In this document: positions 4,760 to 46,256 of the stretch, piece by piece
Layout of the letters: each line of letters begins with the position of its first letter
How positions within the stretch are numbered: position 1 is the first letter of the stretch
IMG/VR virus record: IMGVR_UViG_3300037511_000147
Span: 1-46,256 of that record
Reading direction: 5' to 3' (one strand)
DNA: 46,256 nucleotides
Source: a virus
Taxonomy: Duplodnaviria; Caudoviricetes
Translations under genes and position numbers: made by a program
The notes under the pieces: generated by a model
What the model was told of the DNA's origin: nothing
The model's input: only the letters and a program-made list of their open reading frames with translations
Database searches by the model: none

Positions 4760-5081
4760 GTCATCCCTCGAAGACTATTTTCGCATGGCAGTGCTACGAA
4801 CCGGCCGCGGGCGCGCCGATAAAACGGTCGACCTTACGCGCATCGGCGCACCGGATCGCGAGGTGCAGTGGCACGGGATGGGGCTCGACAAGGTTGAATT
4901 GAAACAGCTCGGGAAGAAGCCTGAGCCGCATCAAACGCGGTACCACCAGTATCTGGCTACGTGCTGTGTGCCAGTGTACCTGATCGACAGCAAGGAAAAG
5001 GTGGACCTGTACATCGCCGCGCGTAGTGCCGGTAAGCACTATCCACCGCTCTTTTCCGTACCCTGCGACTTCATCAAATGA
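4752..5081 (+). CDS. VRR-NUC domain nuclease
   Basis: MLESSLE start, GAPDR, VELKQLGKKPEPHQ and VYLIDSKEKVD match the VRR-NUC pattern; lies directly upstream of the SNF2 helicase. Confidence 0.85.
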   Translation: MLESSLEDYFRMAVLRTGRGRADKTVDLTRIGAPDREVQWHGMGLDKVELKQLGKKPEPHQTRYHQYLATCCVPVYLIDSKEKVDLYIAARSAGKHYPPLFSVPCDFIK

Positions 5082-6628
5082 CCGAAAAACGCCGATTCGA
5101 GCCGCGGCCGTACCAGCGCACCGCGGCGCGGTTCCTGCTGGACGTGAAGCGTGCCAACCTCTGGGCGAAACCCGGCATGGGCAAGACCTCCACGGTGTAT
5201 GCAACGCTCGACATCCTTAAGCTCGCGAGTTCCAGCTTTTTTCCCGCGCTCGTTCTGGCGCCGCTGCGCGTCGCGCAGCTCGTATGGCCCGGCGAGCAGC
5301 GGAAGTGGCACGACTTCCAAGGGATGAAGGTCGCGACGATCCTGGGGACCGCGGCCGAGCGCGAAGAGGCGCTCCTTCGCACCGGCTGCGATATCTTCGT
5401 GGTGAACTACGACAACATCCCATGGCTTGTCGAGCGACTCGGTAGCAAATGGCCGTTCCGGATCATCTGTGCGGACGAGTCCACCAAGATAAAGAGCTTC
5501 CGCGGCTGTCTGGAGCGCGATCCGCCGCACCGCTTGAAGCTGAACGGGAAGGGCGGCAAGCGCTCCGCCGCGCTCGCGCACATCGCACAGAATACCGGCC
5601 GATGGATGAATTTAACCGGCACGCCGGCGACAAACGGTCTGCTCGACCTGTGGGGGCAGCAGTGGTTTATCGACTACGGCCAGCGGCTGGGGCGCACGTT
5701 CAGCGACTACAAGAAACGCTTCTTCATGCAGGATCCGTACACCGGCATCACGTCGGCGCAGCTCGGCGCGGAGCCGTTGATCCACCAGTTGCTGGCCGAT
5801 TGCACGATGGCGCTTCGGCCGGAGGACTGGCTGCCGATCCAACAGCCGATCACGACGCGCGTCGAAGTCGAGATGCCGCCAGAGGCCGCCAAGGTTTACC
5901 GCAAGATGGAGCGGGAATACTTCATCGAAGTGGGCGCGGTGAAAACAGAGGTGGAGGCGGCAAACGCGCTCGCGAAGTCCGCTAAGCTCCTCCAGCTAGC
6001 GGTCGGCGCGGTGTACGACGCTGAGAAGCATGTACACCACGTGCATGACGCCAAGCTAGACGCGCTCGAAGATGTTGTTGAAGAGTGCGGCGGTGAACCC
6101 ATCCTCGTCGGGTTTTACTTCCGGTTCGACGTCGCGCGGATCAAAGCCCGCTTCCCTCAGGCGCGCGAGATCCGCACGGAACAGGACGTCGCCGACTGGA
6201 ATGCAGGGAAAATACCTATCGGGCTCGCCCACCCGGCGAGCCTCGGGCACGGGCAAAACTTGCAAGATGGCGGGCGCATCGTTGTATTCTATTCGCATAC
6301 GTGGGATTTGGAGCTCCGGCTCCAGTTCATCGAGCGCGTCGGACCCACCCGTCAGGCGCAAGCCGGCTACAAGCGATCGGTGTTGATCTACGATCTGATG
6401 ACGCGTGGAACGATCGAGCGGGAAGTGTTGATGCGACACGAAAAGAAACTCTCGATTCAGGAGGCGCTGATGCTCGCCCGTGCGACACGGCAAGCTGACA
6501 TGGTGACAGATGTAGAGCTCGCCGCACTCGCTGCTCATGAAGCGGCGCGTCAGCTAAGTCCGTACGAACAGCTCGATTTGAAGCATCTGCGCGAAAACCG
6601 GCTCGGAGCCGCTGCAGGACTGATTTAA
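5078..6628 (+). CDS. SNF2-like superfamily 2 helicase
   Basis: PRPYQ, PGMGKT (Walker A), ADEST (motif II), LTGTP, GHGQNLQ, QFIERVG. Confidence 0.93.
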   Translation: MTEKRRFEPRPYQRTAARFLLDVKRANLWAKPGMGKTSTVYATLDILKLASSSFFPALVLAPLRVAQLVWPGEQRKWHDFQGMKVATILGTAAEREEALLRTGCDIFVVNYDNIPWLVERLGSKWPFRIICADESTKIKSFRGCLERDPPHRLKLNGKGGKRSAALAHIAQNTGRWMNLTGTPATNGLLDLWGQQWFIDYGQRLGRTFSDYKKRFFMQDPYTGITSAQLGAEPLIHQLLADCTMALRPEDWLPIQQPITTRVEVEMPPEAAKVYRKMEREYFIEVGAVKTEVEAANALAKSAKLLQLAVGAVYDAEKHVHHVHDAKLDALEDVVEECGGEPILVGFYFRFDVARIKARFPQAREIRTEQDVADWNAGKIPIGLAHPASLGHGQNLQDGGRIVVFYSHTWDLELRLQFIERVGPTRQAQAGYKRSVLIYDLMTRGTIEREVLMRHEKKLSIQEALMLARATRQADMVTDVELAALAAHEAARQLSPYEQLDLKHLRENRLGAAAGLI

Positions 6629-9335: not shown

Positions 9336-9605
9336 ATGGCTGATCCAACCGAAAATGTAGTCCGGCGTCCGGACCGTCCTAAAGTCCAGAATCCGAAAGC
9401 TGCCGCTCCTGCTATGGGCGGAGGCGACATGGATGCGGGCGAGGAGATGGGCTTTTTCAAGACGCTCGGGCGATTGCTGGTAAAGCACAACGCCAACGAT
9501 GAGGGCGACGCGCAGGAGCATGCGCAAGGTGGCCTCACGCGACGGCGCAAGGTGGATCAGCTCGTTGATGAGGCCGTGAGCGGCGCCAAGGACGACTCTT
9601 ACTGA
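9336..9605 (+). CDS. Hypothetical protein
   Basis: ORF 2 nt after the primase stop, TGATG-coupled to the endolysin. Confidence 0.65.
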   Translation: MADPTENVVRRPDRPKVQNPKAAAPAMGGGDMDAGEEMGFFKTLGRLLVKHNANDEGDAQEHAQGGLTRRRKVDQLVDEAVSGAKDDSY

Positions 9606-10051
9606 TGTTCGCGCACAATGTCATCGATGACATCATCCGACGCGAGGGTGATACGTACACCGATGACCCAGCTGACCGCGGTGGTCCGACGAAATACGGG
9701 ATCACGCTGGCTCTGCTTCGCCGGCTGCGTCCGGATGCGACAGCGGCGGACGTGCAAAGGCTCACCGAGCAGGAAGCGCGTGACGTATACCGAACCGAGT
9801 TCGTGTTGCCGTTCGACCGGTTTCGCGCATACCCGGACCTGCTCGCCCTGTGCGTCGACTCCGCCGTCCAGCATGGAGTGTCGCGCGTACAGGGGTGGCT
9901 GAAGCTGATTCCTAGCAGTGATCCGGATGTGAACTACATCAGCCTATTCAAGCGCCGGATGGTGTTCTACGGCGAGATCGTGCAGGCTGACTCGTCGCAA
10001 TCTCGTTTCATAAAAGGCTGGCTTGCCCGGCTATCGGAGTTCGCAAGATGA
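9605..10051 (+). CDS. Endolysin, glycoside hydrolase family 108
   Basis: IIRREG.TYTDDPADRGGPTKYGIT, DSAVQHG and FIKGWLAR are GH108 hallmarks. Confidence 0.9.
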   Translation: MFAHNVIDDIIRREGDTYTDDPADRGGPTKYGITLALLRRLRPDATAADVQRLTEQEARDVYRTEFVLPFDRFRAYPDLLALCVDSAVQHGVSRVQGWLKLIPSSDPDVNYISLFKRRMVFYGEIVQADSSQSRFIKGWLARLSEFAR

Positions 10052-10353
10052 GTCGCAAAGTCAAGTTCGATAACCCCACAAAGAACACGGATGGTACCGC
10101 GTTCGACGCGAAGAACAACACGGCCGGCTATGACGTCGTGATCGACGGTCAGCCCGCAGTGAGTGTTCCCGTCGGGTACGCAACCGAAATCGATCTGGAG
10201 AGCCTCGCCGGCTTTTCGGCGCTCAAGGCGGGCAAGCATACGGTGCAGCTCGACGTCGTATCGAAGGAGGGGGCGCGCTCTGATCTGTCTGCGCCCGCCA
10301 CGTTTCCGGTTGTGGGCACCCCGCTGGCTCCGACGATTACTAGCGTGGATTGA
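10048..10353 (+). CDS. Single FN3/Ig-like domain protein
   Basis: FDNPTKNTDGT...AGYDVVIDG...GKHTVQLDVVSKEGARSDLS...P.AP is an FN3-like beta-sandwich pattern; no signal peptide. Confidence 0.55.
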   Translation: MSRKVKFDNPTKNTDGTAFDAKNNTAGYDVVIDGQPAVSVPVGYATEIDLESLAGFSALKAGKHTVQLDVVSKEGARSDLSAPATFPVVGTPLAPTITSVD

Positions 10354-10366
10354 GGATCTGTTCTAG

Positions 10367-10579
10367 GTGAAGCCCGAAACACTCGCAGCATGGCGTGACG
10401 CACTCGGCGGTCGCAGGTTTATCCTGACGCTCGGCGCCGGGGTCGTTGACGCCATGCTGGTGTGGTTCGGCAAGATCACGAGCGCGGACTTCGTGCTCGT
10501 GACGTCCGCGACTGTCGGCCCCTACATCGCGGCCGAGGCGTACCTGAAAGCCCGGACCGCCGGCCCGTCTCCGCAGTGA
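10367..10579 (+). CDS. Putative holin
   Basis: GGRRFILTLG followed by two hydrophobic segments; lies between endolysin and spanins. Confidence 0.6.
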   Translation: MKPETLAAWRDALGGRRFILTLGAGVVDAMLVWFGKITSADFVLVTSATVGPYIAAEAYLKARTAGPSPQ

Positions 10580-10917
10580 ACCCGTACCTACTCATCGCCG
10601 CTCTAGTCATATTCGGGGGCTCACTGACGGCCACCGGGGTCACAGCTTACCGGATGGGCGCCGAGCACGAGATCGCCGCTCAGGCGCGCCAGGATGCCGC
10701 CGTTCAGGCCATGACCGAGGCTGCGGCGAAAGCCATCGCCAGAATCGAGGTGAAGAATGTCACCATCCGCCAGCGCCTGGAGACCGAGATCCGGGAAAAG
10801 CCTGTGTATCGCGATTGCCGTATGGACGCTGACGGGCTGCGCCTCGTCAATGAAGCCATCACCGGGACCGCCCCCGCTGGTGATCGCGAACTGCCCCGAG
10901 ATACCACCGCAAACTGA
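10576..10917 (+). CDS. Rz-like inner-membrane spanin
   Basis: GTGA overlap; N-terminal TM (YLLIAALVIFGGSL), coiled coil, and EKPVYRDC motif. Confidence 0.8.
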   Translation: MNPYLLIAALVIFGGSLTATGVTAYRMGAEHEIAAQARQDAAVQAMTEAAAKAIARIEVKNVTIRQRLETEIREKPVYRDCRMDADGLRLVNEAITGTAPAGDRELPRDTTAN

Positions 10918-11002
10918 CCCGAGCTTCGGCGCAACCGTGCAGAAGCTGACCGAGATCGCCATGCAGTATAGAAAATGCCGCGCCGCGGCGTTAGGACAGT
11001 GA
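10757..11002 (+). CDS. Rz1-like outer-membrane lipoprotein spanin (overlapping Rz)
   Basis: Lipobox LTGC, Pro-rich stretch and C-terminal YRKC, in a shifted frame overlapping the Rz 3' end. Confidence 0.8.
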   Translation: MSPSASAWRPRSGKSLCIAIAVWTLTGCASSMKPSPGPPPLVIANCPEIPPQTDPSFGATVQKLTEIAMQYRKCRAAALGQ

Positions 11003-13570: not shown

Positions 13571-14935
13571 TCATGCCGTCTTTCTAAACCAGTCGCTCAG
13601 CAGGATCGCTTGCGCAGAAGCGTGCTCGTTGTCGAATCCTAATCCAATCAGCGCGGGGGTGCCCAGGAAAGTCGCCGAGGCTTCGGAAAATACGGTAACG
13701 AACGTGCCCGCTATGCCGGTCGAACTCGCAGAGAAGACCAACGTCGTGCCGTTGTAGCTGATTCTGAGATATAGCCGATTTGAGAATGACGCGCCAGGAA
13801 TGAACGCCGCCGGGATGGAGTTCGAGACCAGCACCGGGTTGCTGTTGAACGAATTGAAGGCGTTCAGCTTCTGCACGGTGAGCGCAGTGCCGCTGCCGAA
13901 GCCTATCCAAATGATTTTTCCGCCTGTGCCGGCCGCCACAAACATGCCGCCCGACGCGCCCGACGCCAGTGCTGCGGAAGGTGCTTGAGTGGATACCTGC
14001 GCCGTGTACTCCCACGAGCCGGTTACAGGCTGAGAGTAGCCGCCGAAATTGCGCGAGGCGGTGAGCGCCGGGAGAAACACGAGCGACCCGTTCGCTAGAG
14101 TGGTGGTCCCGGTGCTGACATTAAACGCCGTCCATTGACTGGTATTGATCGATGAACCGGTCTCGAACTCGTCATCTTGTGCATTGGGGCTGCTGGGGTG
14201 CGTGTCTGGCGTGATATTGCCGCCCCCGCCTCCGCCGCTTTGCGCGACCCAAGAAGGATTAGCTCCGGCCCCGTTCGTGCTCAGTACGTAGCCTGCGGTG
14301 CCCGCCGGCAGTCGCGCCCAGCTCGATGCGCCGCGATACAGGATATCGCCTTGCGCTGCACTGCCGATAAAGTCGAGCACGTCCGAGAGAGTCAGCTCTT
14401 CGCCGTTGCCGGCGCCACTAGTCTTGCGTCCGAACACTCGTGACGTAGCGGACGCCTGTATGTAGCTCGCATTGATGGTGTCGAAAGACAGTGCTCCGCC
14501 GCTTTCGTGGAGTACCGCCTTGTCGCCTGTCGACTGGATCGCGACCGGCTTACCGCTCGTGTTGTTCGGCCGCCCCCACGCGGAGCGCGCGGAGATGTCA
14601 GCCATATCGAGCGTGGGATTCCCTGCATCGCCATCCGCGTTCGTCACCGTCAGGCGGCCGGTATTGGCGACGGCAATGCTGCGCACAGCCATGTCGCCGT
14701 TCGCCTTGCGGGTGATGAGACCGTTGCCGGTCAGCGCGGCCAGCTTCACGATGTTCGCCGGGATCTCGCGAATAAATCGCCAGATTACCGTCACGACCCC
14801 GGGCGACGTGCCGCTGCTCTTACTGGCCGCGATCGCCGCGGAGATTGCTGCCGTGACCTCCGCGCGTGAGGGTGCATCCGTCTCGATCGAGATGGACTTA
14901 TTTACTGTTCCGATGATCGGGACGCGGACTTTCAC
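13571..14935 (-). CDS. Tail fibre / receptor-binding protein
   Basis: NADGDAGNPT and GDILYRGASSWARLPAGTAGYVLSTNGAGANPSW fibre motifs, a Gly linker, then a beta-sandwich (lectin-like) tip starting at DDEF. Confidence 0.8.
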   Translation of the reverse strand: MKVRVPIIGTVNKSISIETDAPSRAEVTAAISAAIAASKSSGTSPGVVTVIWRFIREIPANIVKLAALTGNGLITRKANGDMAVRSIAVANTGRLTVTNADGDAGNPTLDMADISARSAWGRPNNTSGKPVAIQSTGDKAVLHESGGALSFDTINASYIQASATSRVFGRKTSGAGNGEELTLSDVLDFIGSAAQGDILYRGASSWARLPAGTAGYVLSTNGAGANPSWVAQSGGGGGGNITPDTHPSSPNAQDDEFETGSSINTSQWTAFNVSTGTTTLANGSLVFLPALTASRNFGGYSQPVTGSWEYTAQVSTQAPSAALASGASGGMFVAAGTGGKIIWIGFGSGTALTVQKLNAFNSFNSNPVLVSNSIPAAFIPGASFSNRLYLRISYNGTTLVFSASSTGIAGTFVTVFSEASATFLGTPALIGLGFDNEHASAQAILLSDWFRKTA

Positions 14936-16878
14936 GGCTCATCCGGTGCCAGCAGCTTTGCGAGATCCACGGTCTCCCGCTTCTTCGCCGGGGCCGGCTT
15001 ACGGGACGCCTTACCAACCCGTCCGGGCGGCGGGGCGAGATCGAGCGAAGGGTCGAACCATTGCTCGCCGGGCTTCGGCACGGGCGGCATGATACGGGCC
15101 GGAGCAGCACCTTCCGGAGCCACCAGATTGAGGATGTCCGCCAAGCCGAGATCGGCGCCCGGCATAGGCGTGGGCGGCATGATTCGGGAGGGCGTAACAC
15201 CCTCGGACGGCACAAGATCCATGAGCGGGCCGAGCGCCTCCAGCTGCTCCGTCGGCATGGCGTCGAACGGTCGCTCGATGCGGGCCGGTGCGACGCCCGG
15301 AGGGGCATCCAGGCCGAATCCCTGTGCGAGATCCATGGATTGCTGCGGATTGACCTCCTCCGGCGCCTGGGGCTTCTCCGGCCGTTTGCCGTAGTCTCGG
15401 AAGCTGCTGCGCTCCGCCGGTGTGACGGCCTCGCGCCCGAAATTGTTCTGGAAACCGTCAGCCGTGACGTCGAGTCCGGGAATCTTGCCCAGAAGCCCTC
15501 GCCCCGCGTCCTTGATGGCGGAAAACACCCCCTCGGACTTGACCGAGCTGCGCGTCCCGGTGGCGCCCTGGCTGTGCCGCACCACGTTCTTGGCGTAGCC
15601 GCCGGCATCCGCGATTATCTTCGCGTTGCCGGTGAAGCGGCCGGGGTTCTTCTGGTCCATCCGGAACAGCTTCTGCGCGTCGACCTGGCCGCCGCGCGTT
15701 GCCGTCTCGTAATCGTGTATCTTCGCCAGCGCGCGGCGGGACGCCACATAGTCGGTGTACAGCTGCTGATTGCCGCTCGCCTTGAGCTGGGCTTCGAGCT
15801 GATCCTCCAGTGTGTCGGCCGCGTCGCGATCAAGCTGTCCCTCGCGATTCGTCGCCACGTCCTCGGAGCGAGCTCGCTTCACTTCCTGCCGGCGCAGTGC
15901 GCCGATCACCTGGGTGGTGCTCGGCTTGTCCGTCGGCTTGAACCCGGTTCGAGTCTTGGCCGCCTCGTAGGCCGCTTGCATACTCTCCGACGGGCTCGCG
16001 GATACGGCTTTCTCGACGTCTTCATAGACCTTGAAATGCGGCTGCCGGAGCTTGTCGTAATCGGTCTGCATCAGCGACGTTTTGCCGGTCGCGCCGAGAT
16101 CCTCGGCCGCGAGCTTCGTCGTGGTCGCCTGATTCTCCAGTGTGAAATCTTTGCGCAGCGCGGCCGGATCCTGCAGCGACTCGCGTCGCGTGCCTGGCAC
16201 TCTCTCGCCGGGCTTCATGGCCTGCACGTCAGACGGTCGCAGCTTGTATCCGGCTGCGCGCAGCGTGCCGATCACGTCGCCCTGGCTCGCCTTGGCGGCG
16301 CCGCTCACGGCGGCCTCTTTCAGCGCAGCCGCGCCGGCCTTCAGCGGCACGCGCGCGCCGAGAACGCCGGCAACATCCGGGATTGCCTCTTCCGCACTCT
16401 GCACGATCGTGCGCGCACCGTCCGGCAAGTTCTCCACTGCGCGATCAATCGGCGCGGCGACTTTCTCGGCACCGGCCTGCACCGCGCCGAGCGCGCGCGT
16501 CACAGGGTCGTTGCCCTGCGGCAGCTCTACCTTCGGCATGGAGACGTCGCCGGTTACCAGCCCTTTCAGGCCGCCCAGCGCCTTGAGCCCGGTATTCACC
16601 GCTCCCGCTGTGGCGTGCAGCGCTGCGCCGACTCCAGGCAAGTCCATCAACGTATCGCCGATGCCGCGTTCGCGGCGCAGCGTCTTGCTGCCGTCGTCGC
16701 CGGTGACCGCATAGAAGCCTTTTGGGGCGTCCTCATCTGTGCGCCACGCCGCCCCTTCCGTCGGGTTGGCTTTGACGGCTTCGTGGTCGCTAAACGCGCG
16801 CAGCCGGGTGCCGAGCTCCGAATCGAGCTGATCCGGCATCTCCACGACAGTCCCGTCGGGCATCTGCACCTGTGGCAC
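14932..16878 (-). CDS. Putative internal virion (ejection) protein
   Basis: MPQVQMPDGTVVEMPD N-terminus, Ala-rich helical body, position downstream of the GNAT and nozzle genes. Confidence 0.7.
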   Translation of the reverse strand: MPQVQMPDGTVVEMPDQLDSELGTRLRAFSDHEAVKANPTEGAAWRTDEDAPKGFYAVTGDDGSKTLRRERGIGDTLMDLPGVGAALHATAGAVNTGLKALGGLKGLVTGDVSMPKVELPQGNDPVTRALGAVQAGAEKVAAPIDRAVENLPDGARTIVQSAEEAIPDVAGVLGARVPLKAGAAALKEAAVSGAAKASQGDVIGTLRAAGYKLRPSDVQAMKPGERVPGTRRESLQDPAALRKDFTLENQATTTKLAAEDLGATGKTSLMQTDYDKLRQPHFKVYEDVEKAVSASPSESMQAAYEAAKTRTGFKPTDKPSTTQVIGALRRQEVKRARSEDVATNREGQLDRDAADTLEDQLEAQLKASGNQQLYTDYVASRRALAKIHDYETATRGGQVDAQKLFRMDQKNPGRFTGNAKIIADAGGYAKNVVRHSQGATGTRSSVKSEGVFSAIKDAGRGLLGKIPGLDVTADGFQNNFGREAVTPAERSSFRDYGKRPEKPQAPEEVNPQQSMDLAQGFGLDAPPGVAPARIERPFDAMPTEQLEALGPLMDLVPSEGVTPSRIMPPTPMPGADLGLADILNLVAPEGAAPARIMPPVPKPGEQWFDPSLDLAPPPGRVGKASRKPAPAKKRETVDLAKLLAPDEP

Positions 16879-36905: not shown

Positions 36906-36988
36906 GCTAAACCCATTGGGCTTTATAGGGCTTCACTTCACCCATCGAACCTGCGACACTGCTAAACCCATTGGGCTTTATAGGGCTT
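36906..36988 (+). repeat. 28-bp direct repeat, two copies, in the divergent intergenic region
   Basis: GCTAAACCCATTGGGCTTTATAGGGCTT at 36906..36933 and 36961..36988. Confidence 0.9.
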
Positions 36989-37778: not shown

Positions 37779-37804
37779 TACTCTCACTCACCAGATCGCC
37801 GCAT

Positions 37805-38063
37805 GCCACAGGAGCAGCGAACCATGTTAACCAAGATCATCGGCGCCCCGTTTACTGGCGAGCGTGCCGCTAAGCAGGTGCTCACCAAGTTTCGCAAGCG
37901 CCATCGCGTCGCGTTGCGCGGCGCAGTTGTGCTGCAGGACTACAGTGGGGCTTGGTACGTTCACGCACCCTTGGGCGGTACAGGTTTCAGCGCCGCCGAA
38001 ATGGCGGGCGCCCTGCTTGCCGTTCGTGCCGAATAGCGCACGCCACAGGAGCAGCGAACCATG
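37805..38063 (+). repeat. Repeated 22-bp translation-start cassette GCCACAGGAGCAGCGAACCATG
   Basis: Exact copies at 37805..37826 and 38042..38063; variants at about 38304 (CCACAGGAGAAGCAGTCATG) and 40203 (GCCACAGGAGCGACGAATCATG). Confidence 0.85.
37824..38036 (+). CDS. Early hypothetical protein
   Basis: AGGAG RBS cassette; first gene after sigma54 promoter 1. Confidence 0.75.
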   Translation: MLTKIIGAPFTGERAAKQVLTKFRKRHRVALRGAVVLQDYSGAWYVHAPLGGTGFSAAEMAGALLAVRAE

Positions 38064-38276: not shown

Positions 38277-38320
38277 GAAATCTAAGTTTGACGTCTAAGC
38301 ATTCCACAGGAGAAGCAGTC

Positions 38321-39431: not shown

Positions 39432-39611
39432 ATGTCAGAAGAGAACCTGTTGCGGGCACTCGGTCCTTCCGAGGGCGGCACCGCCACTTTCCCTGACGAG
39501 CTGATCGTCGTGGCGGAGATCATCGATAGGTATGACCCCGGCAGCGGCCTGGGTCGTCATCTCCGCGAACGGGCCGAGAAAATTCGCACCGCCCTGGAAG
39601 GTGCCGCGTGA
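39432..39611 (+). CDS. Early hypothetical protein
   Basis: GGAG RBS before ATG 39432. Confidence 0.6.
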   Translation: MSEENLLRALGPSEGGTATFPDELIVVAEIIDRYDPGSGLGRHLRERAEKIRTALEGAA

Positions 39612-40078
39612 CTCGCTCACAGGAAACGGGGAAACCTCTCACGTGCGTGGCGCGCATAGCGAGGACGGCGCGTGTTTGTGGCCGTCCAGCAAAATGGAGA
39701 GCGCCCAGCGGCGACCTACTTTGCGGCGTTCATCGTCTGAGCGCCGAGTCTTCTGGAAGCGGTACGCGATTTAAGTGTACTCCTGTGAAGCAAGGCGATG
39801 CAGCTGCATACCGGCTGGCCGTTGCCGCGACACAGGCTGCACGAGAAGCCCTCATCAAGGGCGCGGGGCATGAGCCAAAGAATGACCTCCTGACCATCAA
39901 GCGTGAGCACGCAGAGGCCGCATTCCGAGTGCTCGACGTAGTCGCGGGTTGCCTTGGGCAGTTGGCGTCCAAATCGAATCCGCTGATGTGCCACGGCTCG
40001 GATCTGTGGACCGTGCGTGAGATACGAGATCACGCGAAGGCTGCCGCAAAGATGCTGAAGAAGGATCTGGAGCGATGA
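39608..40078 (+). CDS. Early hypothetical protein with C...C...CxxH motif
   Basis: GTGA overlap; TCVA...VCGRPA...LCGVH, possible zinc ligands. Confidence 0.6.
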   Translation: MTRSQETGKPLTCVARIARTARVCGRPAKWRAPSGDLLCGVHRLSAESSGSGTRFKCTPVKQGDAAAYRLAVAATQAAREALIKGAGHEPKNDLLTIKREHAEAAFRVLDVVAGCLGQLASKSNPLMCHGSDLWTVREIRDHAKAAAKMLKKDLER

Positions 40079-40149: not shown

Positions 40150-40177
40150 TTGACCGACCAGAGCTTGGCGATATAAT
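40150..40177 (+). promoter_or_regulatory. Sigma70-type promoter candidate
   Basis: TTGACC-16 bp-TATAAT upstream of the RBS cassette at 40203. Confidence 0.5.
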
Positions 40178-40221
40178 ATCCGCACACTTTCACCCAACGT
40201 ACGCCACAGGAGCGACGAATC

Positions 40222-40359
40222 ATGCCTGAAGTAATCCGATACGACGTCTTTATCGCGATCCAGCTTAATGCCTGGGTCGACTTTGTCGGTGCTCACTGCT
40301 GGCTGTCTGCCCGCTCGCGCCCGGTCTACCTGCCGGCGCATTTTGAGGTGCAGCCGTGA
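40222..40359 (+). CDS. Small hypothetical protein (45 aa)
   Basis: Preceded by the CCACAGGAG cassette; GTGA overlap downstream. Confidence 0.6.
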   Translation: MPEVIRYDVFIAIQLNAWVDFVGAHCWLSARSRPVYLPAHFEVQP

Positions 40360-40721: not shown

Positions 40722-41104
40722 CCCGAGCTGAACTTTACGGGCTGATCACCAAGGCGATGCGTGCGGCCGGCGAGCTGTCAAGCTGGCATCCTGGCGAGGA
40801 TGTGTGGCAAATGTGCGCCGAATCGCTGGCCGATGAACTCGCCAAGATCCACCCGCATTTCGACCGCGAGCGCTTTCTGCGGGAGTGCGAAGGCCGCACG
40901 CCGACCCCACCCCCGAGTACGCTACTGCACAGCACGGCGAACATGCTGCTCGCGCTTGTGCAGACCAGCGGCCGGCAGAAAGCCGTGGAGCTGCTGGTGC
41001 AGTACGGCGCACCCCCTGGTGCCCCCACGCTGTCGGGGGTGTCGGCTGATCGCTTACCTGCCTTGCACGCGGAATTGGAGCGGCTATGCCCGCCGTCGCG
41101 TTGA
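40718..41104 (+). CDS. Two-domain hypothetical protein
   Basis: GAGGAG RBS; PHFDRERFLREC motif, then a helical domain similar to the C-terminus of 44459..44902. Confidence 0.7.
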   Translation: MTRAELYGLITKAMRAAGELSSWHPGEDVWQMCAESLADELAKIHPHFDRERFLRECEGRTPTPPPSTLLHSTANMLLALVQTSGRQKAVELLVQYGAPPGAPTLSGVSADRLPALHAELERLCPPSR

Positions 41105-41219
41105 TCCTGCTGCTCGTCGGAATGGGCGCCGCCTGTGCGGCTGCTCGCGCCACGCACCGCTGGCCGAAGTCCGGCGGGCACACCCATCCTTCTTACTTTC
41201 GCAACCCATCGGAGAAACC

Positions 41220-42047
41220 ATGAAATGTCTGACCAGATTCGCCGTCATGCTGTCGATTGCGGCTTTGCTTACGACGGCCGTTGCACATGCCACATCACCG
41301 CCCCACGTGGCCGTACCAACGACTACATTCGGGGGGTCCTCTTCTCCGACTTCGCATCCATCGAAGCACGGGTCTCAGCCGCCAGCCGCGCAGCCGTCGA
41401 ACAACGTCTCGCAGGTCTCTCAGACGAAAAGCTCGGCCAGCTCGTTGAGCAAGTCGGCAGCGAAATCAGACGCCGCTGCCCGCAGTGGCAGCTCGTCGGC
41501 GAGTCAATCATCCAGCACGGGCGGGCACTCTTCGGCGACCGGCGGGAGCAGCAAGCAGGCACAGCGACAGAGCAGCACGAACGAGAGCAGCGGCAACGCG
41601 TCAGCTCAGACCGGTGCAATCTCTGTAACGGGACCGGCTGCGTCCACTGCGAACGGTGATCAGGAAGTAACTATTCATGGCGACGAGACTACGTACGAAG
41701 CCCCCAAGATCCCCGTTTCGACTGCAGTCGCTGGTGGCACTAACACCACGGCAGGTTGCCGCTATTCAGTGGGGGCCGGCGGGCAAGCGACTATTCTCGG
41801 CCTCAGTTTCGGCATCGGCCGGAAAGACCGGGACTGTGAGCGGGTTGCGCTCGCGGAAATGATGTACGACCGCGGCAACCCCGATGCGGGCGACGCCATC
41901 ATGTGCCGCGTTCGCGAGCTGCGAGAGGCGTTCGGCGCTGACTGCCTGGCAATGCTCGCCCGCTCGCGCCCCGCCGTTCCTGCGCAGCCTACAGAGCGCC
42001 AGCTGCGGATGCGCGAGGAATTTGAGCGCGGGGAGTACCGGAAATGA
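41220..42047 (+). CDS. Secreted/periplasmic protein with Ser-rich linker and Cys-containing C-terminal domain
   Basis: GGAG RBS; signal peptide MKCLTRFAVMLSIAALLTTAVAHA; C-terminal CRYSVGAGGQ...GLSFG...DRDCER...IMC. Confidence 0.7.
   Translation: MKCLTRFAVMLSIAALLTTAVAHATSPPHVAVPTTTFGGSSSPTSHPSKHGSQPPAAQPSNNVSQVSQTKSSASSLSKSAAKSDAAARSGSSSASQSSSTGGHSSATGGSSKQAQRQSSTNESSGNASAQTGAISVTGPAASTANGDQEVTIHGDETTYEAPKIPVSTAVAGGTNTTAGCRYSVGAGGQATILGLSFGIGRKDRDCERVALAEMMYDRGNPDAGDAIMCRVRELREAFGADCLAMLARSRPAVPAQPTERQLRMREEFERGEYRK
41225..41659 (+). CDS. Overprinted zinc-finger protein (144 aa) in an alternative frame
   Basis: ATG 10 nt after the same GGAG; HAVDC...CTC, DFASIEARV, amphipathic helices, CNLCNGTGCVHC. 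Confidence 0.6.
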   Translation: MSDQIRRHAVDCGFAYDGRCTCHITAPRGRTNDYIRGVLFSDFASIEARVSAASRAAVEQRLAGLSDEKLGQLVEQVGSEIRRRCPQWQLVGESIIQHGRALFGDRREQQAGTATEQHEREQRQRVSSDRCNLCNGTGCVHCER

Positions 42048-42238
42048 CCGAGATAGTGCCGGAGCTGATCGACGGTATGCGGCAACCGGTATTCCTGGGC
42101 GGTTTCATCCATGCAGATGATGTGCAAACGCGCGTGGATCTGGCCCGATGGCCACTCACGTTCAGGCCGTACTATCGAGTACCGCCCCCTGAAGGAGTCG
42201 ATCCGTGGACTTGGATGGAGCTGGAGTTTCAGCCATGA
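42044..42238 (+). CDS. Hypothetical protein
   Basis: GGAG RBS and ATGA overlap. Confidence 0.6.
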   Translation: MTEIVPELIDGMRQPVFLGGFIHADDVQTRVDLARWPLTFRPYYRVPPPEGVDPWTWMELEFQP

Positions 42239-42501
42239 AACGCCAGCGCAGAGTGCACTACGCCCCGCATGTAGGATCTCGCGCCCTCTGTGGCGCACCT
42301 GTTCCGCCGTTCGGCGCTTCGCCGCAGCTGCTGACGCAAGTAGCCGACGACATCACCTGCCGCGTGTGCATGTTCCACTACCTGGCGCAGCAAGCGCCAT
42401 GGGCGTCTGCGTTCCTGGCCGACCTGCGCGCAGCGGATCCCAGTGCGAAGACGTCGGAAGGCGCGCGGCTGAGGCGGGAGGCTGCGACCCCGGGATGCTG
42501 A
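42235..42501 (+). CDS. Hypothetical protein with H...CG...CxxC zinc motif
   Basis: GGAG RBS, ATGA overlap; VHY...ALCG...ITCRVC. Confidence 0.65.
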   Translation: MKRQRRVHYAPHVGSRALCGAPVPPFGASPQLLTQVADDITCRVCMFHYLAQQAPWASAFLADLRAADPSAKTSEGARLRREAATPGC

Positions 42502-42616
42502 GACTGTTTCGAGGAGTGATGACAACCTTGGCGCGCACGGCGGTTCTGCTGTGCGCGCTTTTTCTTTTACTGCTCGGCTGGCCGACGCGCCGGCTGAAAC
42601 TATTTGACAATAGTTG

Positions 42617-44301: not shown

Positions 44302-44432
44302 GCGGCGAAGACTTCGCGTTCTTCTATTGGTACACCCGTAAATGGGGGCAAGCGCAATGCCGCTGCTCCGACTGTCGCGCGATGTTCCACCGCTTCTGGC
44401 GGCGCTGCCAGCGCTGGCAGCGCAGCTACTGA
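44298..44432 (+). CDS. Small CRCxxC protein (44 aa)
   Basis: GGAG RBS; QCRCSDCR motif. Confidence 0.55.
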   Translation: MSGEDFAFFYWYTRKWGQAQCRCSDCRAMFHRFWRRCQRWQRSY

Positions 44433-44902: not shown

Positions 44903-45102
44903 TGTCGCTGAGCTGGGCGCTCAACAATCCCGCCACCCGCGTCGCCATTTCGGTGACGCGGGAGCGGTGTTGGTATGCGACCATGAAGCAGGTTCGGCGT
45001 GCGTACGACGAAGTCGCCGAGAATGCGAAACGGCATCGCATCGGACTGCATATCAGCTGCAACCTGTACGAACTGCAGAAGAATATAACCCCGCCTCTTT
45101 GA
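44902..45102 (+). CDS. Hypothetical protein
   Basis: TAATG coupling to the previous gene. Confidence 0.5.
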   Translation: MSLSWALNNPATRVAISVTRERCWYATMKQVRRAYDEVAENAKRHRIGLHISCNLYELQKNITPPL

Positions 45103-45114
45103 TATGGTGTAGCA

Positions 45115-46256
45115 GTGGCAGGAACACACAGTTTGTGGTCACCGTCGTCCGCCAAGCGTTGGCGGAAGTGTGCTGGCTCCGTCGTCATGAACGAGGGGCA
45201 GGACAAGGCGAGCAAGGAAGCGGCGGAGGGTACCGTCTATCACGGTGTCTCCGAGTGGGCCCTTACAACGGATCAGCCTTGCACAGCTGCGGTCGGGAAA
45301 CAGCTCAGCGCCGACGGCTTCTCGTTCATCGTGAAGGAAGAGGATGCCGACTACGCCCAGGAGTACGTCGACGCGATCCGCGCCCGCGTGCGCGAGGGGT
45401 GCATCGTCAGCGTCGAGATCAAGACGGACACCAGCGAAACGCTGGGCATCGCCGGGCAGACGGGCACCATCGACGCGCGAGTATTCGACATCCCGAGCGA
45501 AACCATCGAGATGCGCGATCTGAAGTTCGGCCGCGGCGTCAAGGTGTACGCCCGCGAGCCAGACGGCAGCCCGAACGATCAGCTTTTCATCTACGGCTGG
45601 TCAGAGCTGAAGCGCACGCTGTTCATGTGCGACTGGCAATGGCTGAAGCTGGCGATTCACCAGCCTCGCATCGGGCACTACGACGAAATCACTTTGAGCC
45701 GCACCGAGTGCGAGATGCTCGCTGTCCAGCTGCGGCACGACGCGCAGCGCTCGTATGCCGCCTGGCAGCGATACCACGAAGACGCCACCGGCCTCGCCGC
45801 CGTGCTTACTCCATCGCTTGAGGCGTGCCGCTGGTGTGCGCGCGGCGGATCTTGCGTAGTGCGCGCTGACGACGTAATCAACGGAGCAGACCTGACAATG
45901 GCCGCAAAGAATCTCCCGCTCATGACCGGGCTTCAACTTTCCGCCGCGCTCGACTGGGCGGAGAAGGCGGAAGCCCTCATTCGCGCAATGCGCGCTGAGG
46001 CGCTGAACCGCGTGGAGCAGAAGTCGCCCGACGCGCCGCCAGGCTGGAAGACGGTGGAGGGGCGCAAGGGTGACCGCGTTGCCGATCCGGCGGATATCCG
46101 GCGCCGCGCTACCGAAGCCGTGAAGCAGCACACCGCCGGCGACGAAACGTCAGCGATGCGCGACGGCTTGCCGGTCGCGCTGTACACCGAGCCGGAGCTC
46201 AAGTCCGTGGCGCAGATCGAAAAGGCGTGCAAGAAGCTCGGCACGCTCGGCAAGAC
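45115..46256 (+). CDS. DUF2800 / Cas4-like PD-(D/E)xK exonuclease (continues at 12..198)
   Basis: HSLWSPSSAKRWRKCAGS, AAEGTVYH, GTIDA, RDLKFGRG, NDQL.IYG, IHQPR, CRWC...C, GWKTVEGR, LKSVAQIEK. Absent from the ORF track because it runs off the end. Confidence 0.9.
   Translation, partial: MAGTHSLWSPSSAKRWRKCAGSVVMNEGQDKASKEAAEGTVYHGVSEWALTTDQPCTAAVGKQLSADGFSFIVKEEDADYAQEYVDAIRARVREGCIVSVEIKTDTSETLGIAGQTGTIDARVFDIPSETIEMRDLKFGRGVKVYAREPDGSPNDQLFIYGWSELKRTLFMCDWQWLKLAIHQPRIGHYDEITLSRTECEMLAVQLRHDAQRSYAAWQRYHEDATGLAAVLTPSLEACRWCARGGSCVVRADDVINGADLTMAAKNLPLMTGLQLSAALDWAEKAEALIRAMRAEALNRVEQKSPDAPPGWKTVEGRKGDRVADPADIRRRATEAVKQHTAGDETSAMRDGLPVALYTEPELKSVAQIEKACKKLGTLGK

Follow-up and report, generated by a model that had tools for sequence, protein, structure and literature searches.

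Long same-strand overlaps in tailed phages are known mostly from lysis genes. The two-component spanins of the lambda Rz/Rz1 type are described in PMC6139136 as two membrane proteins of one lysis complex, one of which has an export signal. In Pseudomonas phage Fc02, the genes olg1 and olg2 occupy two same-strand frames of one transcript; olg1 mediates superinfection exclusion and, in the account of PMC9936078, only its AUG is called well spaced from the Shine-Dalgarno (SD) sequence, while olg2 is given without a known function. In E. coli, the sequences AUGUG and GUGUG allow initiation in two overlapping frames from one SD, both in vitro and in vivo, in a spacer-dependent manner (PMC9841429). 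For viral overprinting it has been proposed that disorder in one frame relieves constraint, and the new frames encode mostly accessory proteins (PMC8227390). Long overlaps are uncommon in DNA viruses, where the median is 15.6 nt in a set made up mostly of dsDNA viruses (10.1101/2021.06.10.447953).

Here we describe a pair of genes in a tailed phage, one nested in the other. Gene A (275 aa; 41220..42047, + strand) very probably shares the segment 41225-41659 with a second gene, B (144 aa; 41225..41659, + strand), lying in its -1 (+2) frame, so that both would be real translated genes. The E. coli ambiguous starts lie 2 nt apart, as given in PMC9841429, against 5 nt for A and B, and the products of A and B are both long and conserved. 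The treatment of overprinting in PMC8227390 covers small eukaryotic viruses, whereas the present overlap covers 435 nt in a tailed phage and spans a signal peptide. The support for B comes from its conservation in relatives, and not from its open frame.

GENOME SETTING

The window, by which we mean the whole stretch of DNA analysed, is a complete virus record (46,256 bases; completeness rated at 100%; GC ~63%). Among its products are a DNA polymerase, helicase, primase, terminase and major head protein, the last sharing 27-28% identity with the head proteins of Rhizobium phage RHph_N65 and Microcystis phage Mae-Yong1326-1. Strains near this phage were found in soil runs; no RNA run was among the matches listed, a blank that carries no weight on expression. 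Since an endolysin and an Rz-like spanin are also encoded, the host is likely Gram-negative. The endolysin gene (9605-10051) precedes the spanin gene, whose 3′ end is overlapped by an Rz1-like lipoprotein frame (to about 11000); these lysis genes (near 9600-11000) are on the replication strand. The structural and early arms diverge, and the non-coding gap that separates them contains a perfect 28-nt direct repeat (36906-36933 and 36961-36988, 55 nt apart), possibly an operator, phage promoter or origin element.

The A/B pair sits among small + strand genes, between a sigma-70-like promoter (40150..40177, +) and an intrinsic-terminator-like hairpin of 13 pairs with a T run (42530..42567, +) that likely closes the operon. 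The promoter is a consensus match only, at 11 of 12 bases, from a scan that found 3 sites where 1.8 were expected in shuffles. We infer that this block of small genes is an early operon holding the pair. Directly upstream of A lies a 45-aa ORF (41086..41223, +), in which all five strain substitutions are synonymous. An 88-aa ORF of the same operon (42235-42501) has an H...C...C-x-x-C pattern and a weak match to Pfam zf-HC3 (E 0.0056, below the cut-off).

A 27-nt repeat containing an AGGAG ribosome-binding site precedes several small early genes (37800-37826, 38037-38063, 40198-40224, and 38299-38316). In strain X2, 245 other bases replace 37818-38037, between two copies of this repeat, which suggests that gene cassettes swap there. 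The same strain carries other sequence at 39607-39891, 44319-44429 and 44904-45116; the early region is thus mosaic, while the A/B locus is kept.

LAYOUT OF THE PAIR AND ITS STARTS

Each codon of B consists of the third base of one A codon and the first two bases of the next. The 435-nt overlap begins in the second codon of A, where the ATG of B exists because A starts M-K-C. It ends with a TGA (41657-41659) in the A codons G146-D147, at the beginning of the family-conserved domain of A, which fits the original prediction that the low-complexity part of A would end about where B stops. Near the other end, C20 and C22 of B fall on Ala22 and Ala24 of A, the predicted signal-peptidase site.

The arrangement of the starts is also as first described: a GGAG SD core (41211..41214, +) is followed by ATGs in different frames at 41220 and 41225, with spacers of 5 nt to A and 10 nt to B. 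Spacers of both lengths are found at neighbouring genes too, both start codons are within usable distance of the single SD, and the start region is weakly folded (z +1.25). On balance we favour the view that one GGAG serves both starts, with reasonable though not high confidence. Because the TGA of the upstream 45-aa ORF overlaps the ATG of A (as ATGA), A may also be started by translational coupling to that ORF. The shared ribosome-binding site is not a clade-wide layout, since six of the eight full-length close homologs of A (P0003-P0006, P0009 and P0010) can hold no -1-frame ATG in their first 15 codons; of these, P0003 is the row nearest to the window. In such homologs B may have been lost, may start elsewhere or may never have been present.

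THE LIKELY EXPORTED PROTEIN FAMILY OF FRAME A

Family and alignment agree with the original reading of frame A as a signal peptide, a Ser-rich low-complexity linker and a Cys domain to 42047. The predicted signal peptide (41220..41291, +) runs from the M-K-C start to Ala22-His23-Ala24, with a hydropathy of 2.27 over residues 7-21; the export signal was called from hydropathy and alignment, and the signal peptides of homologs end PAFA or PAHA. A linker rich in Ser, Ala, Thr and Gly follows (41292..41660, +; residues 25-147, 36 Ser in 123 residues), which varies in length among homologs and has pLDDT <50 in the structure model. The conserved domain (41661..41969, +) is single-coded and carries C180, C206, C229 and C242, which are likely disulfide-bonded. 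All four are invariant in nine close sequences, C180 and C206 are invariant in 32 sequences, and A has no Cys between residues 4 and 179. The Gly-rich alternating stretch between C180 and C206, where the model again has pLDDT <50, may form a disulfide-closed hairpin.

Over its Cys domain A matches the profile of phrog_20531 (E 6.5e-16), as do 31 of the 32 aligned A members, and it matches hypothetical proteins of phages RSL1, RSP15, RsoM2USA and JWDelta. Ten homologs were found among 8000 scored candidates; the eight close ones all have a hydrophobic N-terminus with an Ala-x-Ala-like end, a Ser-rich linker and the four invariant Cys. The named phrog_20531 members (Ralstonia phage RSL1 ORF070, RSP15 ORF122, RsoM2USA_147 and Achromobacter phage JWDelta JJJA_0025) have the same succession of signal peptide and low-complexity linker, and share with A an IPV-x-T-A...C...C domain. 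They differ in their Asn/Gly/Gln-rich linkers and closed -1 frames, and all are annotated as hypothetical. The family (L012-L039) is spread over jumbo, N4-like and small phages; its low-complexity linkers differ widely, while the Cys-hairpin domain is fixed. No function or solved relative was found for it, and structure and family searches with A gave no fold or function beyond uncharacterised phage clusters. A is a widespread phage protein that is likely exported.

FRAME B AND ITS HOMOLOGS

Frame B encodes 144 aa with the HxxDC...CTC motif and amphipathic helices of the original prediction. Its N-terminal H-x3-C-x7-C-x-C (41246..41290, +; residues 8-22, HAVDC...CTC) is a predicted Zn site kept in all three B sequences. 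The best-conserved core is formed by central amphipathic helices (residues 66-102; 41420..41530, +), of which the helix at 66-84 has a hydrophobic moment of 1.55. Near the C-terminus, residues 131-142 read CNLCNGTGCVHC, a CxxC-x4-CxxC (41615..41650, +) that would be a second metal site; homologs keep a Cys cluster there with other spacing. B has no hydrophobic segment (best 0.92). From these motifs, B is likely a metal-binding protein, predicted to bind zinc with a site at each end.

The earlier label 'DnaJ-like' does not hold. A DnaJ domain has four CxxCxGxG repeats. B shares with this zinc-finger type a single CxxCxGxG, which neither homolog (P0019, P0021) keeps, only the C-terminal Cys cluster being retained, and a Pfam scan of B gave no match to a DnaJ-type zinc finger at E up to 10.

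Homology searches made separately for each frame, proposed as a check with the original prediction, led from A to phrog_20531 and many homologs and from B to two homologs. For B, phmmer over 1.84 billion protein representatives returned four matches including B itself: P0019 (117 aa; E 6e-13, matched at B 37-99), P0021 (128 aa; E 3e-4, matched at B 60-138, 33% identical to B) and an unrelated repeat protein, aligned only at the Cys tail, which was dropped. Over B 44-86, P0019 differs very little from the window. Both homologs keep the central helix and end in a Cys cluster of different spacing. In the alignment, which has three rows and was built on B, M1, H8, C12, C20 and C22 are invariant and lie outside the stretches matched by phmmer, and the loop of the N-terminal motif has 7 residues in B against 10 and 8 in the homologs (H-x3-C-x(7-10)-C-x-C). 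A word-index protein search missed both homologs, so its blanks are weak.

No family or fold for B was found in Pfam, NCBIfam or PDB sequences, and structure searches with the B model (pLDDT 58) returned generic helical bundles (ESM Atlas, best 0.79; Foldseek and VIA, best Z 5.3). The phrog_6730 profile reaches E 0.005 to B, in one of the three B members, and at E up to 1 also matches in 7 of 14 control genomes. Resemblances of B 41-51 to a family A polymerase motif and of the B helix to H-NS N-termini were dropped after profile scans lent support to neither.

IS FRAME B OPEN BY CHANCE?

B could be a shadow ORF, A being the only gene, with the homologs resembling B through conservation of A and inherited silent sites. 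In GC-rich DNA, a linker rich in Ser and Ala frequently leaves its -1 frame open, and same-strand shifted-frame runs of at least 144 codons number 11 in the 19 long genes of this genome. For the close A homologs, the frame would be open by chance in 3-12% of cases, and -1-frame runs of 138 and 146 codons, both without a start Met, occur in distant A genes. Databases, moreover, take in only gene-called ORFs, so that open frames are selected for.

Given the A protein, frame B stays open in 1.7% (long-gene codon usage) to 3.0% (context-aware) of synonymous resamplings, and in 0.24% with early-gene codon usage. With 11 runs of such length in 19 long genes, the open frame is not significant on its own, and we rejected it as proof of B, long shadow frames being ordinary here. 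Two other long nested same-strand ORFs with an ATG, of 178 codons in the -1 frame of the helicase gene (5078-6628, +) and of 225 codons in the +1 frame of a structural-arm gene (14932-16878, -), are probably shadows. Codon and amino-acid scores of B fall within the range of stop-free decoys. The pattern CxxC-x(2-6)-CxxC is present in 0.05-0.08% of open decoys and absent from 43,589 shadow-frame residues, for a motif picked post hoc in a very large scan. B has 2 prolines where 10.4 are expected; under the context-aware null this deficit is only z -2.2, the extreme of 50 control windows, and the very strong deficit obtained at first was discounted, since most of it came from a genome-wide bias against C|C where codons meet. 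Judged on this genome alone, B is a real gene at even odds.

CONSERVATION OF B BEYOND A

The first base of each B codon is a silent base of A and can be read from most B residues, so conservation at these positions can be followed in the homologs. Silent third bases of A are kept at 50 of 87 positions in P0019 (34.7 expected) and at 49 of 86 in P0021 (32.5 expected), with z 4.4 and 4.9, respectively, at fourfold sites. Against a null that redraws the silent base of A, the similarity of the B sequences is in excess in all three pairs (z 8.2, 7.5 and 5.3). For B residues 1-25 alone, which lie outside the search match, the same null gives z 4.5, 5.3 and 4.5. The N-terminal motif of B arises in at most 0.36% of resamplings of seven A-type heads.

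These silent-base and similarity nulls assume saturated silent sites. Saturation is likely, because the single-coded domain of A is 73% identical to P0016 and 62% to P0008, and because strain substitutions in neighbouring single-coded genes are silent in 14 cases out of 17. The original prediction had named reduced synonymous variation as a check, and the silent bases of A are indeed over-conserved, the bases being read back from B residues on the assumption of saturation. Within strains, the one that covers the overlap has six substitutions there (three silent in A, two in B and one in neither, with no stops), too few to test selection.

These results weigh against B as a shadow. The His and three Cys of the N-terminal site need particular silent bases in A, kept in three of three sequences despite changed flanks and loop length. 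The similarity excess still amounts to z 4.5-5.3 outside the search match, and P0021, only 33% identical to B, yet keeps 15 of the 28 rarer T/A silent bases. We therefore regard the shadow reading as improbable and prefer B as a translated gene.

DO THE B HOMOLOGS OVERLAP A-FAMILY GENES?

The locus is called differently in different assemblies, as B with a 92-aa stub of A in one and as full-length A alone in another. The expectation that gene callers would miss the pair was right in that one frame is chosen, and wrong in that the locus as such is not missed. A search with the 92-aa stub found two more truncated A calls, P0016 and P0017, each starting just before G-D-Q-E-V, the place in A where B ends in the window. 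P0017, from a contig of 46,872 bases, is an A homolog whose call lacks the front half and begins at that boundary.

P0016 and the B homolog P0019 are each encoded on a single Logan contig of 2183 bases, and we infer that the two lie on the same contig. At nine of nine positions, the final 8 residues of P0019 and its stop agree with the -1 reading of the 10 residues that begin P0016; this was one of 17 registers tried, and the best of 5000 random tails reached 6. No stop in the A frame is forced by either B homolog. In each, the third A residue becomes Cys and the A frame decodes to a hydrophobic, signal-peptide-like head, that of P0019 being able to end A-F-A-T-G as in the A family. The M-K-C head of P0008, read in its -1 frame, is compatible with the first 10 residues of P0021. 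No B homolog was tied to P0017 in the tail-fit comparison; P0017 and P0008, with its M-K-C start, are candidate carriers of further B genes. Protein compatibility and the equal 2183-base contigs thus suggest that B overlaps an A-family gene in relatives as well.

DNA of the relatives' B/A locus was not found in viral contigs searched with B, A, the A alignment, the exonuclease and the B alignment. Metagenome contigs gave no relative DNA, the one locus matched being a false match in another gene, and both loci matched in genome contigs were false. Annotated phages yielded no close-relative DNA by blastn or by tblastn of B. In a dual-frame DNA pattern search, none of 109 loci matched the A or B profiles at E under 0.01.

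The truncated calls bear on another reading, in which only B is translated from this start and A, if made at all, is a short C-terminal protein from a later start. Three gene calls (P0013, P0016 and P0017) do give a truncated A just behind the end of B, as is, however, expected from callers that forbid long overlaps. The A frame is open, with a signal peptide like those of full-length homologs and an M-K-C start 5 nt behind GGAG that overlaps the upstream stop; the B homologs force no A stop and decode to signal-like heads, and the first start after B, that of the 92-aa call, would remove the invariant C180. We consider this reading very unlikely. Still less credible is a -1 frameshift or slippage joining parts of A and B in place of two starts: the starts are 5 nt apart and ATG-AAA-TG contains a short A run, but B has its own ATG in three of three sequences, with the next residue making the third A codon Cys, and a shift so close to the start would yield nearly the same B.

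Two starts and two products remain the preferred reading, and the original figure of about 435 bp of dual coding is upheld by the two B homologs, the exact -1 fit of P0019 and P0016 and the excess conservation at silent positions of A.

WHICH FRAME CAME FIRST

Distant homologs of A were collected from 33 loci, 23 of them distinct. In none of the 23 is the -1 frame open across the signal peptide and linker, and each has at least three stops there. One distant locus that lacks a start Met, L038, also has a C-x-C on the cleavage site in its -1 frame. The window, P0016 and P0008 fall in one clade of 11 rows (support 99/96), above which the tree warns of long-branch joins. In overprinted pairs the more restricted frame is taken as the new one, as stated in PMC8227390. 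By this distribution criterion A is old and B new, since B is found in one A clade only and the distant -1 frames are closed. B likely arose in one clade of the A family, by overprinting on A in the -1 frame.

Tolerance of change in the signal peptide and low-complexity linker would be what makes the overlap possible. The original idea that a tolerant linker hosts the second gene is borne out in so far as B runs over the Ser-rich linker, but it does not cover the best-kept motif of B, which lies on the signal peptide of A.

PROPOSED MECHANISM

One early mRNA, running from the promoter at 40150 to the terminator at 42560, would carry A and B. Ribosomes would start at either ATG from the one GGAG, and at A also via coupling to the upstream ORF. 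A would pass through Sec, be cleaved after Ala24 and become disulfide-bonded in the periplasm, where it might act at the host envelope, for example in receptor masking or in the exclusion of other phages. B would stay cytoplasmic and bind metal at both ends, its central amphipathic helix (66-84) contacting a host protein during early takeover. These functions are guessed from anatomy and position, and we hold them to be rather doubtful.

As to how B gained its ligands, T-ending A codons before Ala or Val would supply the cysteines of B, as the Cys at A position 3 would supply its ATG. A two-site zinc protein may then have been born de novo from the grammar of a signal peptide read out of frame (M-K-C giving a start, Ala-x-Ala giving C-x-C), with one ribosome-binding site setting the ratio of jointly acting exported and cytoplasmic factors in early infection, and with such regions forming a general nursery of genes hidden by callers. 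This is a conjecture that we lean somewhat against in its full form.

COMPARISON WITH KNOWN SYSTEMS

A literature search covering mostly openly available papers found nothing on the A/B pair or on RSL1 ORF070. Like A and B, the two-component spanins of PMC6139136 are same-strand out-of-frame genes of tailed dsDNA phages, with an export signal in one partner. Where spanins form one lysis complex in the membrane, however, A and B appear to be an exported protein and a cytoplasmic metal-binding protein, both likely, in an early operon. No lipobox Cys stands at the cleavage site of A, B lacks any hydrophobic segment, and the pair lies away from the lysis genes; the phage has a separate Rz-like gene of its own (10462-10917).

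The olg1/olg2 pair of Fc02 (PMC9936078) resembles A and B in layout, with two same-strand frames on one transcript. Its starts are 25 nt apart, against 5 nt here, and the starts of A and B both stand behind one SD.

The A/B pair offers a traceable gene birth, with a host family that is widespread without the second frame and one clade that has it. The clade members that cannot hold the same start allow gain of B to be compared with its loss or relocation. For annotation, recurrent N-terminally truncated calls at one boundary in an exported-protein family (here P0013, P0016 and P0017) may be the sign of a hidden overprinted gene. Taken on its sequence features, the pair likely differs from known overlaps in that the nested gene spans 435 nt, takes its start and predicted metal ligands from a signal peptide and has been kept within a clade.
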